Translations under genes and position numbers: made by a program
Notes under the pieces: generated by a model
The model's input: the letters and a program-made list of their open reading frames with translations, nothing else
Database searches by the model: none
What the model was told of the DNA's origin: nothing
In this document: piece by piece, positions 261 through 38,322 of the stretch
How positions within the stretch are numbered: position 1 is the stretch's first letter
How the letters are laid out: every line of letters starts with the position of its first letter
From: Raja brachyura
Lineage: Eukaryota
Direction of reading: 5' to 3'
Assembly: GCA_963514005.1 (NCBI GenBank)
Contig: OY740813.1
Coordinates: 8,370,001 to 8,434,000, forward strand
DNA length: 64,000 nt

Positions 261-500
261 TGTGGGACCCAAAGTGCTGGAGTAACATCACGGTTCAGGC
301 AGCATCTCTGGCGAACATTGATGGGTGACATTTTTAGTCGGGACCTATGGAAGGGGAGGGGAAAATGGTGGGAGTCCTGAAAGAGCACAGAGGAGGGGGG
401 AGAGATAGGGAGGGAATGGCGGAAAAAGGGGGGGACTGTTAGATGTTCCTTAAACTTGGAGATTTCGATGTTCATTCCGCAAGATTGTAAGCTACCCATG
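261..500 (-). mobile_element. Penelope-like element 3' remnant (end of GIY-YIG endonuclease plus terminal repeat)
   Basis: Minus strand reads GSLQSCGMNIEISKF (Penelope GIY-YIG end, typically LGxLQPxGxNIEFxxF), followed by the gatgctgcctga...gttactccagcac terminal motif. Confidence 0.65.
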
Positions 501-2544: not shown

Positions 2545-3725
2545 CTAGACTTTCAGAAAGCCTTTGATGTATCTAGCCTTTCAAAAAGCCTTTGATAAGG
2601 TCCCACACGGGTAACTGGTGACTAAAATTAGAGCACATGGTATTGAGGGTAGGGTGTTGGCATGGATAGAAAATTGGTTGACAGACCGGAAGCAAAGAGT
2701 AGGAGTGAACGGGTCCTTTTCAGAATGGCAGGCAGTGGCGAGTGGAGTGCCGCAAGGCTTGGTGTTGGGGCCGCAACTGTTTACCATATATATTAATGAT
2801 TTGGAAGAGTGAATTAGGAGCAACACTAGCAAGTTTGTGGATGACATAAAGCTTGGTGGCAGTGTGAACTGTGAAGAGGATGTTAGGAGGTTGCAGGGTG
2901 ACCTGGACCGGTTGAATGAGTGGGCAGATGCGTGGCAGATGCAGTATAATATAGATAAATGTGAGGTTATCCAAGGGGGCCGATTATTATCTCAATAGGG
3001 TTAGGTTAGGTAAGGGGGAGGTGCAGCGAGATCTGGGCGTCCTTGTCACTGAAAGTTGGCTTACAGGTCCAGCAGGCAGTGAAGAAAGCTAATGGAATGT
3101 TGGTCTTCATAACAAGAGGATTTCAGTATAGGAGTAAAGAGGTTCTTCTGCAGTTGTATAGGGCTCTGGTGAGACCACATCTGGAGTATTGCATACAGTT
3201 TTGGTCTCCTAATTTGAGGAAGGACATCCTTGTGATTGAGGCACTGCAGCGTAGGTTCACGACATTGATCCCTGGGATGGCGGGACTGTCAGATGAGGAA
3301 AGATTGAAAAGACTAGGCTTGTATTCACTGGAGTTTAGAAGGATGAGGGGGGATCTTATAGAAACATATAAAATTATAAAAGGACTGGACAAGCTAGATG
3401 CAGGAAAATGTTCCCAATGTTGGGCGAGTCCAGAACCAGGGGCCACAGTCTTAGAATAAAGGGGAGGTCATTTAAGACTGAGAAATAACTTTTTCACCCA
3501 GAGAATTGTGAATTTTTGGAATTCCCTGCCACAGAGGGCAGTGGAGGCCAAATCACTGGATGGATTTAAAAGAGAGTTAGATAGAACACGAGGGGCTAGT
3601 GGAGTCAAGGGATATGGGGAGAAGGCAGGCATTGATAGGGGACGATCAGCCATGATCACAATGAATGGCGGTGCTGGCTCGAAGGGCCGAATGGCCTCCT
3701 CCTGCACCTATTTTCTATGTTTCTA
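2545..3725 (+). mobile_element. 5'-truncated CR1 (HER1-type) LINE with frameshifted RT
   Basis: [60 protein letters not shown]; ends ctatgtttcta. Confidence 0.92.
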
Positions 3726-3794
3726 AATACTTCAAGAGGAGACGTGGGGCGGAGACCAAGGGCACTAGCTCCTGCTCTGAGCCAAGATATCAGG

Positions 3795-4617
3795 CCAAGT
3801 TACAAGGTTAATTCCCGGGATGGCGGGACTGTCATATGCTGAGAGAATGGAGCAGCTGGGCTTGTACACTCTGGAGTTTAGAAGGATGAGAGGGAATCTC
3901 ATTTAAACATATAAGATTGTTAAGGGCTTAGAAACATAGAAAAATAGGTGCAGGAGTAGGCCATTCGGCCCTTCGAGCCTGCACCGCCATTCAATGTGAT
4001 CATGGCTGATCATCCAACTCAGTATCCCGTACCTGCCTTCTCTCCATACCCCCTGATTCCTTTAGCCACAAGTGCCACATCTAACGCCCTCTTAAATATA
4101 GCCAATGAACTGGCCTCAACTACCTTCTGTGGCAGAGAATTCCAGAGACTCACCACTCTCTGTGTAAAGAATGTTTTCCTCATCTCGGTCCTAAAGGAAT
4201 TCCCCCTTATCCTTAGACTGTGACCCCCTGTTCTGGACTCCCCCAACATCGGGAACAATGTTTGGACATGTTTGGCTTGGACATGCTAGAGGCAGGAAAC
4301 ATGTTCCTGATGTTGGGGGAGTCCAGAACCAGGGCCCATAGTTTAAGAATAAGGAGTAAGCCATTTAGAACGGAGGCGAGGAAACACTTTTTCTCACAGA
4401 GAGTGGTGAGTCTGTGGAATTCTCTACCTCAGAGGGCGGTGGAGGCTGGTTCTATGGATACTTTCAAGAGAGAGCTAGATAGGGCTCTTAAAAATAGCGG
4501 AGTCAGGGGATATGGGGAGAAGGCAGGAACGGGGAACTGATTGGGGATGATCAGCCGTGATCAGGTTGAATGGCGGTGCTGGCTCAAAGGGCCGAATGGC
4601 CTACTCCTGCACCTATT
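3795..4617 (+). mobile_element. CR1 LINE 3' fragment interrupted by an antisense CR1 at 3930-4260
   Basis: LIPGMAGL...YKIVKG sequence breaks at 3930 and resumes ggcttggacatgctagaggcagg near 4274. Confidence 0.85.
3930..4260 (-). mobile_element. Nested CR1 LINE 3' end
   Basis: Minus strand FPMLGESRTGGHSLRIRG...FFTQRVVSLWNSLPQ plus CR1 tail. Confidence 0.88.
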
Positions 4618-5593: not shown

Positions 5594-6020
5594 NNNNNNN
5601 NNNNNNNNNNNNNNNNNNNNNNNNNNNNNNNNNNNNNNNNNNNNNNNNNNNNNNNNNNNNNNNNNNNNNNNNNNNNNNNNNNNNNNNNNNNNNNNNNNNN
5701 NNNNNNNNNNNNNNNNNNNNNNNNNNNNNNNNNNNNNNNNNNNNNNNNNNNNNNNNNNNNNNNNNNNNNNNNNNNNNNNNNNNNNNNNNNNNNNNNNNNN
5801 NNNNNNNNNNNNNNNNNNNNNNNNNNNNNNNNNNNNNNNNNNNNNNNNNNNNNNNNNNNNNNNNNNNNNNNNNNNNNNNNNNNNNNNNNNNNNNNNNNNN
5901 NNNNNNNNNNNNNNNNNNNNNNNNNNNNNNNNNNNNNNNNNNNNNNNNNNNNNNNNNNNNNNNNNNNNNNNNNNNNNNNNNNNNNNNNNNNNNNNNNNNN
6001 NNNNNNNNNNNNNNNNNNNN
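5594..6020. other. Assembly gap (427 N)
   Basis: Run of N. Confidence 1.
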
Positions 6021-6565
6021 TATGTGTGCGCATATATATATGTGCGCATATATATATGTGTGCGCATATATATATGTGTGCGCATATATATATGGGTGCG
6101 CATATATATATGGGTGCGCATATATATATGGGTGCGCATATATATATGGGTGCGCATATATATACGTGGGTGCGCATATATATACGTGGGTGCGCATATA
6201 TATACGTGGGTGCGCATATATATACGTGGGTGCGCATATATATACGTGGGTGCGCATATATATACGTGGGTGCGCATATATATACGTGGGTGCGCATATA
6301 TATACGCGTGGGTGCGCATATATATACGCGTGTGTGCGCATATATATACGCGTGTGTGCGCATATATATACGCGTGTGTGCGCATATATACACGCGTGTG
6401 TGCGCATATATACGCGTGTGTGCGCATATATACGCGTGTGCGTATATATACGCGTGTGTGCGTATATATGCGTGTAATGTGTGTGCGTATATATGCGTGT
6501 AATGTGTGTGCATATATATGCGTGTAATGTGTGTGCATGTGTGTGTATATGTGTGTGAGTGTATG
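6021..6565. repeat. Alternating purine-pyrimidine minisatellite (18-25 bp units around tgcgcatatata)
   Basis: Tandem units such as tatacgtgggtgcgcatata. Confidence 0.97.
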
Positions 6566-10020: not shown

Positions 10021-10929
10021 GGATCTAATTAGAAAGATCTAATTCTGGTTCCTTTGGGAAGTACATCAAGGCCTACTTGCGTTGCAAAGGAGATTTATTG
10101 GAATGGCTCCATAGTAAGTGATTTTAGATACCTGGTAAGATAGAAGAGTTGTGTGTTTTCCTTAAAGTATAGAATGTTCCCTGGCATTTTGATAGTGAAT
10201 AAGGAGAAATAGTTGCTGTCAGCAGGAGATTTTGGATAAGTTGCAAAAGGATTAGAGGGTAGATGGTATTTTCATTGTGTTGTCATCTTTGGCTCACTGT
10301 ATGAAATGATGGGAGCATATTAAAATTAACGTGCTGAAGGGAATTTTGTATAAATACTTGCAAAGATTGGGAGTAGGAGCAACTGAATATTTCCAGGAAA
10401 ACTGCTGGAATCATGTGAGGCTAAATGGTCTCCCGTGCGGAATGATTATGCTGTCAAATGAAGAGAAAGCTATGATTCTACAAATAGCTCACCAAGGGAA
10501 TGTTTGTTTGTGGATTCAGCAAAGGCTTAAATGAAATCAAATTGGGAATTGACTATCTGATCCAAATGTATCTTTCCTAAAATCTAAATCTAAATATACC
10601 ACCAAGAGGAAATTTGTACTAAATTTCCAATTTAGTGTTTTGCATTCACTTGAATCCAAATGGGAAATGCCTTTTAGTTTTAAATGCATCTTGCTTTTTG
10701 TTTCTGCACAGGATAGGCAGGATTTGACAAGAGGCTGTAACGAGTTTTCTATAAAGCCAAAATATTGCACAGCTTTGAAAATGTTCTGGTTTTAAGCTGC
10801 TATGTTGGTAAATGTGCTCCCGAGAGGAGTTTTGTACTGAAGATGACAGTGGGTAAGCTTGCATTTCCAATTTAGTGTTTTGCACTCACTGCTGAGGATG
10901 TGGTTGCCTCTATATTCAAGAAATAAAAT

Positions 10930-11660
10930 GCTGGCTGGGTGATTGCTTTGCAGAACACCTTTGTTTGGTCCACTGTTGTAACCCTCTGCTTTTAGTTGGC
11001 TGTCATTTTAATTCTCTATCCTGCTCCTACTTTGACCTATCAGTCTTTCGATTCCTGCACTGTTCCAATGAAAGGTTGAGGATCAGCACCTCTTCTTCTG
11101 CGTGGACATGTTGCAGTCTTTAAGACTTAATATTGAATTTAACAATTTAATGTACCTCGCATTCCTTGTTCATATTAGGACCACCAGTTATGTAAAGGCT
11201 ATCCATTTATGTTATGAACTCAATTTCTCTCTGCACTGATACTGACACGGACAAGTAATAAAATCAAAATAAATTAAAAAAAATCAAATACTTTCTGATC
11301 TGGGCATTTTCCATAACTTTGACTTGCCATTAGTGTGTTTATTTTATCTAACCCTTTATTAATCTGTTAACCACATGTTATCTGCATCATAATGCCTCAC
11401 TAATACTACCCCCACCCTATCATAATGCCTCACCAATCCTACCCCCACCCTTTCAAAGATTAATGGGGCCAAGAGAACGTCCTCTTTGCTTCCCCTCCCC
11501 CCCCCCCCCCCATTAAAAACAAGTTATCAGCTTTTTGCTTTTCCCCCAGTTCTGTGGAGGAGTCATCAACCAGCAATGTTATCTCTAGTTCTCTGTCTAT
11601 GGGTGCTGAGTGCCATTTGTTTTTTTCTCAGCTTCCGAATTTTTAATTTGTATTTCAGCA
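10930..11660 (+). mobile_element. Decayed Penelope-like element 3' end (GIY-YIG endonuclease plus degenerate hammerhead-bearing terminal repeat)
   Basis: LGDCFAEHL...VGCHFNS...DLSVFRFLHCSNE, frameshift, then EDQHLFF..MLQSLRLNIEFNN (10935-11150); degenerate terminal motif near 11550-11640. Confidence 0.75.
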
Positions 11661-30335: not shown

Positions 30336-31527
30336 GTACAATAGATTATACACAGCAGGGATCAGGACTCCTAACATTCATAATATCTTTTGTTTTGGAT
30401 GTTTCATTACTGCTCATACCTCTGGATCATCCAGCATGCGTGTTAATATTACATAATCGTGCTGGCTGTAAAACAGAAGGCACTGTTAATTGAGACTGGA
30501 GGTCTGAACTCGAAATGGAGAATGTTGGAGCTATTCAACAAATTGTCCAGCATTTGAGGAGGGAGACGAAAATGAATACTTGTTGATTGTAGCTGATCTG
30601 TCTGGAGTATTCACTATCTTAGATTACACCAACAGCGTATCTGTCACCTTGGTCAGCCTTCATCGGGCACTAACATTCCATTACTTTTCCCCACCTCTGC
30701 AACTCAAAAAGAGCTTGTTATTTTTATTACGATCTGATGAAAGACTTGAAATGTTAAGCTTCCCCCTTCACTGATGCAGATTTCCTTGCTGAGTATCTCC
30801 AGTGCTGATATTTTTCATTGATCATGCACAAGTAAGCTTGGACTGCAGATGTAAAGGTGTTGTTTTCTGCTATTGATAGGGTGGGTTTGTGTGGGGATCA
30901 GCAGGGAAGAACATGCCCCTCCTGTACCTTGCCCCTCTCTGCACTGGTTTTATCTCGGTTCTGACAAAGATTTGGGGAAACAATTGGGCATCCTTCGCTG
31001 ATCGTGTTGAGATGGCAGCATGCTCTTGTGATTATTCTATAACTTTTATACCATATTCAGGAGTTATTGAGATCAAAGCTCCTGGCTGTTTCTCAATTAG
31101 AACATGAACATTTAAATTCCCGTGGTAAAGGGTTAACAACTGAAGGTAAATGATAGAAATTTTCAGCATGCAAGAGAGATTGAAGTTTACATCCGAACCA
31201 AATCTGAATTTTTAATCTCTGAATCTGAAAGAAAGAGCCTGGTTTTCACCTGAGGTTTGAACCGAAGGGAGAGGAGGCAAGTATGTAATCCGGAGGGGAA
31301 AAAACACACACACTGGCCAGAAAAGCACCTTGTCCTCAGAGGAACTGAGAAAGAATATTTTTAGGTGGAGGTACCTGTGGCTGAAATGTCCTCTCCTAGA
31401 TTGAATGAGGAGAATAATAAGAGAGGAAATCCCAAAACCTTCATGGTCCTTGAACATGAGAGCGCGGATTAATAATAACATTGTTGGTCGTCCTGCGTGT
31501 CGCTGACTTGTATTGTTCTGCTTCCAG

Positions 31528-36309: not shown

Positions 36310-37150
36310 TGTGTTTAGTTTACAATGCAGAAACAGCCCCTTCGGCCCACCAAGTCCGCACCGACCAGCGATCCCCGCACACTTGCATTATCCTACACAC
36401 ACTAGGGACAGTATACAATTAGACCAAGCCAATTATTTTACAAACCGTTAAGTCTTTGGGGTGTGGGAGGAAACCGGAGATCCCAGAGAAAACCCACGCA
36501 GGTCACGGGGAGAACTGACAACACTCGTAGTCAGGATTGAACCCAGAGACAGTGGAAATGTTGGAGACATTACAATTGGAGAGAATTAGATTTATCCTAA
36601 TGGATAAACCTGAGATTTTTGAACAAATATGGTCTCCATTCATTGATTATATGAAGGGGTAGCTGGGCTCAGCATAGAAACTCAATGAGTACACGGTGGA
36701 AAGATCAAACAAAAATGTTTAAGATCAGATTTATATACTTGTCTCTATATATTATAATTAGAAATTGTTCCACTCATTGATAAGTTGTATACCGTTTTCT
36801 TTTCCACAAGTATTTTTATTTTTATTTTTATTTTTTTGTTTTTTGTTTTTGTTTATTTTATTTTTTTTTCTTCTCTCTCTTCTTTATATTAATCAACTAT
36901 AATCATACTCTTATAATTATTCACTATTCTTTCTTTATACTTTTTTCACTCTATAAAAAAAAAGTGAGGCCAATATATATATTTTGTTAACATTTATATA
37001 ATTTTGGAAAGATGTATCAACTATATTTGGAAAAAAATGCTATATTATTTGTTATATGTATGGCCTCTAATAAAAATATATTCAAAAAAAAAAAGGATTG
37101 AACCCAGGTCTCTGGCGCTGGACGGCAGCAACTCTACCGCTGCGTCACCG
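36310..37150 (-). mobile_element. HE1-type SINE split by an L1 insertion
   Basis: SINE body 36310-36546 and head 37094-37150 rejoin at the duplicated AGGATTGAACCCAG. Confidence 0.85.
36547..37093 (+). mobile_element. 5'-truncated L1-clade LINE (ORF2 C-terminus, AT-rich 3' UTR, poly-A) with 14-bp TSD
   Basis: VEMLETLQLERIRFILMDKPEIFEQIWSPFIDYMKG-stop; AATAAA 37069-37074; A-tail; TSD 36533-36546 and 37094-37107. Confidence 0.85.
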
Positions 37151-37512
37151 TTGTCTTGTATCCAAATGTTTTCCTTCTTTTGATCCTTTAGTCATTTTGT
37201 TGTGTGGTCCTCCTTGATTTGATGCCCGTCTCATCCTTTAATCACTTTAGAATCAGACAATTTGATGTGGGGTTGAATTCTGATTACATGCTTGGACTAA
37301 GCAGTTTTGTGTTTTAAAAATGTAGACATTTAGGACATGACCTTTCCTTTAAGCAATTTAGTAATTATTTTTCTGGAAGAAAATTCTATTTTGTTTTCAA
37401 TTAATTCAATTTGGGTGCATTAGGATTTTCAAACAATCTAAATGCTCTAAGGTCCCTTCTTGTGCTAGTTTACCTCTGGGATTTATTTTTGAGTATCGTG
37501 GCATCTTAAATG

Positions 37513-37752
37513 TTTAAGAAGGAACTGCAGATGCTGGAAAATCAAAGGTAGACAATGCTGGAGAAACTCAGCAGGTGAGGCAGCATCTTTGGAGCGAAGG
37601 AAATAGGCGACGTTTCGGGTCGAGTCTGAAGAAGGGTCTCAACCCGAAACATGGCCCATTTCCTTCGCTCCATAGTTGCTGCCTCACTCGCTGAGTTTCT
37701 CCAGCATTTTTGTCTACCTTCGATTTTCCCGCATCTGCAGTTCCATCTTAAA
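37513..37752. mobile_element. Complete fold-back Penelope-derived element with hammerhead core and long TSD
   Basis: End-to-end inverted arms; CTGAAGA-A-GGGTCTCAACCC-GAAAC at 37626-37650; CGTGGCATCTTAAATG duplicated at 37497-37512 and 37753-37768. Confidence 0.85.
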
Positions 37753-38204
37753 CGTGGCATCTTAAATGGTCATTTCCAACACTGGGCTTTACATTCTCTG
37801 GATTTTCCAACATTACCCTGGTGTCATTTCCACAGCTGCAAAGTGCATGTCTGGCGGGAAAGTGCATTGGCGAAAAGGGCGTGATTAGCCTTGCTGGAGA
37901 TCCTTTTGGTAATCGAGTTCTCAGTCAGCACATTTGAAATCAATAGGACATACTTGGGACTGCTTTCAATGAAACGGCACAATGAAAAGTGAAATATTTT
38001 ATCATTGAGCGGTACTAAGAACTACCTATTGAAGAAAATATTATCGGCCTTCCATACTCCACCCACTTCCCAAGTCTTGTTTGCAGACCCACTGTAGTGC
38101 AGTACAGTTGTTCATAGAGTTGGCATGGAAGCAGGGATCTCAGTAACATTAAGACATTTCTAGCCTGTAACGTGCCTGTGTCTTGCTTATTTTTCACCTT
38201 TCAG

Positions 38205-38322
38205 TGTTGTGGAGATGAGAAGTGGGGAGACTGGCGGCCTCACCTTGCCATGGTGCTGTCCAACCTTTCCAACGGACCAGACTTGGACAGAAGAACCATC
38301 ACCACCATGGGAGATACGCTTG
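38205..38322 (+). CDS. SEC16A: SEC16A coding exon 13
   Basis: ctttcAG; CCGDEKWGDWRPHLAMVLSNL...TITTMGDTL; G|GTATGT; 118 nt. Confidence 0.96.

Follow-up and report, generated by a model that had tools for sequence, protein, structure and literature searches.

A short palindrome of two inverted pseudo-LTRs is an ordinary insertion product of a Penelope-like element

Introduction

The published layout of insertions made by Penelope-like elements (PLEs) includes an inverted pseudo-LTR (pLTR), an optional tail of 30–40 bp, and a TSD (PMC3846280, PMC8557442). EN+ insertions of the Pen2a_Av type also carry pLTRs arranged head to head around a palindromic junction, with a tail that is usually present at one end and a TSD that encloses the whole unit. 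The origin of the inverted pLTRs and of the one-sided tails in PLEs is called unresolved (PMC8557442). The transcript start of PLEs lies in the pLTR (PMC6765202), and in vitro a PLE of the anole nicks and extends both strands, with two internal start sites that bound the tail (PMC11167929). PLE hammerhead motifs can occur in pairs, 100–700 bp apart on opposite strands; most are single motifs in truncated PLEs (PMC4209133).

Retrozymes are built of repeats in direct orientation, either tandem or LTR, from which circular RNAs arise. In L1 twin priming, the two nicks in the target each supply a primer for a single RNA, and the resulting cDNAs join by microhomology, a process that inverts sequence without duplicating it. 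A literature search found no paper on a stump form of PLE insertion or on twin priming by PLEs; Repbase, Dfam, and most subscription papers lay outside that search.

The palindrome described here lies in a stretch of DNA of 64,000 nucleotides that was analyzed as a whole (the window). Compared with EN+ PLE insertions that have an inverted pLTR, it has no ORF between its arms, it carries the tail at both ends rather than at the usual one, and its TSD is 14–16 bp long, whereas the rotifer examples have 8–10 bp (PMC3846280). This article presents the structure of the element, the family to which its arms belong, and the way in which such palindromes probably form.

Structure of the palindrome

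The element occupies window positions 37512–37753, and its 242 bases form one end-to-end inverted repeat, which bears out the first-pass annotation of a fully palindromic element of about 240 bp. Complementarity is 89% between the inner arms (37554–37624/37638–37708) and 93% between the outer arms (37512–37555/37710–37753). The element folds as a single hairpin of −180.7 kcal/mol (z −24.5), and none of 200 shuffles folded equally well. The exact long flanking duplication that had been reported is present as a 16-nt repeat (Table 1); its length is given as 14–16 bp because one base at each end could be the element's own. Against the subfamily majority, the left arm has 3 substitutions and one gap of 3 bp, and none of the variants from that majority is mirrored between the two arms. 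A 41-mer across the window copy's junction, itself slightly different, has 49 exact copies genome-wide.

Table 1. Parts of the palindromic element and its flanks, in window coordinates.
Feature	Coordinates	Strand	Remarks
TSD, left copy	37497–37512	+	exact 16-nt repeat; 14 bp certain; family mode 14–16 bp
TSD, right copy	37753–37768	+	exact 16-nt repeat
Left arm, inverted pLTR	37512–37624	−	profile positions 131 to 14; GAAACGTC kept; without CUGANGA box
Left 35-bp optional tail	37512–37546	−	arm positions 97–131; bimodal arm ends
Central junction	37622–37624	.	2-nt microhomology (AG); 3 nt counting a putative extra 5′ G
Right arm, complete 131-bp pLTR unit	37623–37753	+	8 differences in 130 vs subfamily majority
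Minimal hammerhead motif (CUGAAGA, helix II, GAAAC)	37626–37653	+	triplet decayed from GTC to ATG
Right 35-bp tail	37719–37753	+	tail at both ends is a rare form (2/41 unselected palindromes)

In each of four organisms, A (possibly the source), B, C, and E, contigs from the right flank reach 39–46 nt into the element, and those from the left flank enter it by 15–27 nt only, where the bridging rule is 31 nt; contigs of organism F extend 21 nt into the element, on the right side only. Because contigs of four organisms enter from the right flank, the insertion is probably common to several organisms. No empty site without the insert was seen in 8 of the 21 listed runs, in joint tables that were swamped by other copies.

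Directly upstream of the element, window 37085–37150 belongs to another high-copy repeat, as judged from very high contig depth. Downstream, window 38204–38322 is an exon-like stretch, the only part to be covered by long contigs in two runs presumed to contain RNA. Its translation has a likeness to SEC16 that neither Pfam (no match) nor PDB (matches mostly to designed repeat proteins) confirmed. The element may be intronic. Elsewhere in the window, nested long inverted repeats at 3479–4617 (244-nt arms at 76% and 75-nt arms at 95%) do not match the Penelope arm profile, and a TATA/GCGC-rich minisatellite at 6020–6550, beside a stretch of N, gives many sub-threshold matches to miRNA families.

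The hammerhead core

The central CTGAAGA...GAAAC core described in the first-pass annotation was located from 37626 on the plus strand, with a triplet (37651–37653) that does read ATG; the motif was assigned by eye against the description in PMC4209133. The element shares with minimal metazoan PLE hammerheads the arrangement CUGANGA-N-helix II-GAAA and a palindromic ACGU, but it has a decayed triplet and lacks the second core (PMC4209133). The window copy has no intact core with an NUH triplet. A motif scan of the minus strand of the element found no CTGANGA box, since the left arm ends 14 nt before the box; the sequence element claimed for the minus arm is kept there (GAAACGTC). The claim of a ribozyme on each strand therefore fails, as the copy holds one decayed core only and the minus-strand box is missing.

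Across the family, 42 of 92 unselected arms retain an intact hammerhead motif. An Rfam scan of the window returned no hammerhead match at E ≤ 1, which is uninformative for motifs this minimal, and core fragments folded in isolation did no better than shuffles. The predicted cost of forming the core is 5.7–7.3 kcal/mol in single arms, 16.6 kcal/mol in the window palindrome, and 39.7 kcal/mol in an intact symmetric palindrome. The core in the window is damaged and, in the predicted fold, base-paired within the hairpin; the ribozyme would be a passenger in this copy. Retrozymes are likewise short, non-coding, and hammerhead-bearing (PMC7229834), but the repeats of the window family are inverted and its unit boundaries do not fall at the cleavage site: only 2 of 294 arms start near the ribozyme cut site and none ends there.

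Identity of the arms

All genome-wide counts refer to a genome of 2.7 Gb. The unselected sample consists of 78 stretches of 10 kb, or 780 kb, cut from large contigs at round coordinates (of 80 requested, 2 were absent). The arm profile has 294 matches in this sample, at 216 loci covering 3.6% of the bases; a lone arm is present at 151 of these loci and a head-to-head pair at 52. The window itself contains 23 matches, including six head-to-head pairs with different centers. Among the 14 related places listed earlier, 13 have a profile match within about 100 bp; the one at 30490 has none, the nearest match being 30735–30803 (E 0.012). The two Penelope remnants reported to end in the same motif were each recovered in part. 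For the one placed at 10930–11660, a GIY-YIG remnant is present at 10866–11143 (tblastn E 3e-14), and its 3′ end shows no arm match with E ≤ 0.05. For the one at 261–500, an arm match (266–345, minus strand) is present and no ORF match was found by tblastn at E ≤ 0.01; the likeness to the last ORF residues is by eye only.

Sequence encoding a GIY-YIG C-terminus lies upstream of several single arms. In the subfamily of the window element, 30 of 147 exact arm matches were fetched and examined, and 17 of these 30 arms follow the end of a GIY-YIG ORF (of the remainder, 3 were called inverted, 2 more appeared so by eye, and the others are single). On account of this linkage, each arm is identified as the pLTR of an abundant GIY-YIG PLE, and the linkage, together with the head-to-head layout, agrees with the first-pass reading of the arms as Penelope terminal repeats in opposite orientation.

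The long copies of a younger sister subfamily have frames of about 830–1170 aa, and open frames of about 960–1170 aa are present in that subfamily. Pfam matches of its ORF to RVT_1 (E 2e-4) and GIY-YIG (E 1e-3) are both below the curated cut-offs, and a Cx4CxxC linker was recognized by eye before the GIY-YIG domain. A CX2-5CxxC linker is typical of Neptune/Nematis (PMC8557442), a type with which the sister-subfamily ORF may be placed by its linker. All 150 endonuclease segments scored in this subfamily (of 141,811 candidates) are 99–100% identical and without stops, several frames exceed 900 aa, and there are 20261 exact 50-mer arms. At L208:7200-7050 (minus strand), a short ATG frame begins just after the tail and ends near an AG/GTATG site that resembles a splice donor, so that an intron near the ORF start of the young element is possible.

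Arm ends, tails, and TSDs across the family

The 3′ ends of unselected arms are bimodal, with 112 of 294 at positions 91–100 and 114 of 294 at positions 121–131, about 35 bp apart. Both outer ends of palindromes match these two sites, which are also used by single copies. Of the 41 unselected palindromes, 35 are one-tailed, 4 are tailless, and 2 are tailed at both ends, which makes the window copy a rare form. Poseidon of Anolis (PAc), a PLE of a different clade, likewise has two start sites bounding the tail, a hammerhead at the element start, and no ends at the ribozyme cut site (PMC11167929).

The TSD sample comprised 89 of 100 selected palindromes, one duplicate and the broken-arm copies having been dropped. 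An exact flanking repeat of at least 9 bp is present in 56 of the 89 and absent from 33, against a control rate of 0.13% of 7832; the repeat is 14–17 bp long in 45 of the 89, with a mode of 14–16 bp. Family TSD lengths vary from 12 to 18 bp. The tabulation proposed in the first-pass annotation thus yields variable lengths rather than a fixed short one, and these figures support its argument that the long TSD fits retrotransposition and not a MITE. Two palindromes that lie 168 kb apart (L091 and L092) have an identical TSD and are probably a segmental duplication.

At the other end of the arm, 184 of the 294 unselected arms start at profile positions 1–5. Young arm starts were compared in 60 fetched loci, not all independent: 39 lie within 10 nt of a CAGTC motif, 2 lie at 11–300 nt, and 19 lie further upstream. 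This motif resembles an initiator consensus. An extra G is weakly enriched at arm starts (10/18 and 9/18; p 0.02 and 0.03), and a TATA-like box about 30 nt upstream is found in one subfamily only. The CAG before the core was also considered as a splice acceptor that sets the 5′ ends; this was rejected, as many short copies keep the CAG and up to 4 further bases.

Junctions and mirrored variants

Exact 16-mer arms no more than 30 nt apart occur at 2877 loci in the genome. The first 50 listed comprise 27 junction types, as sorted by eye, with 20 loci of a dominant geometry, 7 in three recurrent junctions, and 23 single. The dominant exact center, a microhomology center with a hammerhead core on both strands, is found at 522 of the 2877 loci. 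Unselected head-to-head pairs show 53 distinct geometries in 54 pairs, a count inflated by model-boundary noise. The comparison of centers suggested in the first-pass annotation thus goes largely against its reading of the palindrome as a separately mobile entity: there are 27 junction types in 50 loci (522 of 2877 still share one), 151 of 216 loci are single-armed, and the same layout occurs with kilobase arms. Copies with the window copy's junction belong to more than one subfamily, and relative to the tail this junction faces either way. For the dominant center, the central base is not significantly biased toward the arm that bears the tail (15 vs 8, p 0.21).

Seven insertions with arms of at least about 1 kb have the same layout, six being one-tailed and one two-tailed. 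In four of the seven, the two arms share variants absent from every other arm of the 43 compared, and one kilobase-arm pair is more divergent than 96% of between-copy pairs. The 57 of 84 short palindromes that are close to the young reference contain 24 mirrored variants, where permutation gave 2.1 on average and at most 13 in 5000 rounds; 12 of the 24 derive from three copies of another subfamily. The same 57 copies contain 47 asymmetric changes, none of them in more than 3 copies. In the old unselected set, its own partner is the best match of an arm in only 6 of 41 cases. Both arms likely come from one template. In L1 twin priming, sequence is inverted without duplication; here both arms cover the same sequence. 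One asymmetric change on the tailed arm occurs in 3 copies, two of which have the dominant center: L090, L227, and L241 carry an identical A-to-G at arm position 52, in a UAG context and on the tailed arm only, which could reflect recurrent mutation, editing, or a shared source.

A mirrored variant at position 45, which at first looked linked to a center, occurs in 4220 arms (17% of all arms) against 20261, and ORF-bearing, solo, and inverted copies all include examples of it. It was suspected of marking a lineage of palindromes, a reading that was rejected because the variant is family-wide. That it is shared with ORF-bearing copies favors formation anew from linear sources.

Formation of the palindrome

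The arm identity, the family layout, the ends at two fixed sites, and the TSD are direct observations, and from them the element is probably a minimal head-to-head pLTR insertion of a GIY-YIG PLE that was built anew and not re-mobilized as a unit. In the proposed mechanism, the RNA of the element would begin at CAGTC, immediately upstream of the hammerhead, a transcript start that is read from DNA only. The endonuclease would nick both target strands about 15 bp apart, and both 3′ ends would prime reverse transcription within the 5′ pLTR of the RNA, at one of two places, the end of the tail or 35 nt upstream of it. Each cDNA would extend about 100–130 nt, as far as the 5′ end of the RNA or close to it, and the two would join by 1–4 nt of microhomology, most often the self-complementary CAG-N-CTG; fill-in would then leave the palindrome and its TSD. 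The primer at the upstream site would run ahead of the other primer, and in the window copy both ends would have started at the tail site. Two loci (L304:1266-1958 and L279:1183-1650) hold tandem and inverted concatemers that start at CAGTC and run past the tail into the 5′ body; they are likely the result of repeated template jumps. Because their short units continue past the tail into the 5′ body, the 5′ part of the transcript does act as a template. The in vitro data for the anole come from Poseidon, in a different clade from the family of the window element (PMC11167929).

The second arm could also arise by fold-back self-priming of one cDNA, or by self-priming on an antisense template, as has been proposed (PMC3846280). 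Such an origin is unlikely, even though it suits the dominant center, which is a perfect hairpin around CAG-N-CTG, the mirrored variants, which fit a single template, and a copy with both tails like that in the window. A copied arm cannot hold a tail that is missing from the first arm, yet the tail is mostly on the arm that is shorter at the center, which fold-back would make a copy, and simple cDNA fold-back is disfavored for this reason. In the unselected set the tail is on the center-shorter arm in 16 copies and on the center-longer arm in 6, with 13 equal (p 0.05, borderline); at the window copy's junction the numbers are 28 vs 6 (p 2e-4), and in the long copies the center-shorter arm is tailed in 6/6, one by only 5 nt. 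The tail on the center-longer arm in 6/22 and 6/34 copies is what fold-back would allow; the untailed arm, however, ends where single-arm copies end. It is highly improbable that two separate insertions hit a single site, or that gene conversion afterwards equalized the arms. An unselected locus (L152:8613-9030) does hold two arms, from different subfamilies, at a distance of about 200 bp, and hairpin-driven conversion could conceivably mirror variants as well, but in 56 of 89 copies the two arms lie within a single TSD and the junctions of long copies are flush.

It has also to be considered that the palindrome is a non-autonomous retroelement, transcribed and re-inserted in trans by the Penelope protein, for which we see very little likelihood. 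In its favor are the 522 copies of one exact center with a hammerhead core on both strands, the 49 copies of the window copy's center, and the asymmetric change found in 3 copies; a perfectly symmetric master would, moreover, leave little trace. Against it stand the diversity of junctions and the continuum of sizes, and the occurrence of both the central base and the window junction in both orientations relative to the tail. The position-45 variant has much the same frequency in dominant-center copies (6 of about 27) as overall (17%) and is present in ORF-bearing copies too. By prediction the core would cost 17–40 kcal/mol to form in the hairpin, as opposed to 6–7 kcal/mol in a single arm, and the anole protein requires RNA downstream of the tail, which is absent here (PMC11167929). 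A MITE moved by a DNA transposase, suggested by an element that is short, non-coding, and palindromic, is scarcely credible: the arms are retroelement pLTRs linked to an ORF, the TSDs are variable (12–18 bp) and not fixed and short, and 35 of 41 unselected palindromes have asymmetric ends.

Significance

The window element is a real and ordinary Penelope insertion product of published layout rather than a demonstrated new family. There is a slight chance that the symmetric copies, with their 522 exact centers and a core on each strand, are themselves transcribed and re-inserted by the Penelope protein; if so, a hairpin parasite of a retrotransposon would be hidden among stumps made anew. The value of the element is that of a footprint, and the copies of the young family give testable rules. 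The tail position, the one-template arms, and the single start point favor two-ended priming over fold-back, and the common start point suggests that most short copies come from the 5′ end of the transcript.
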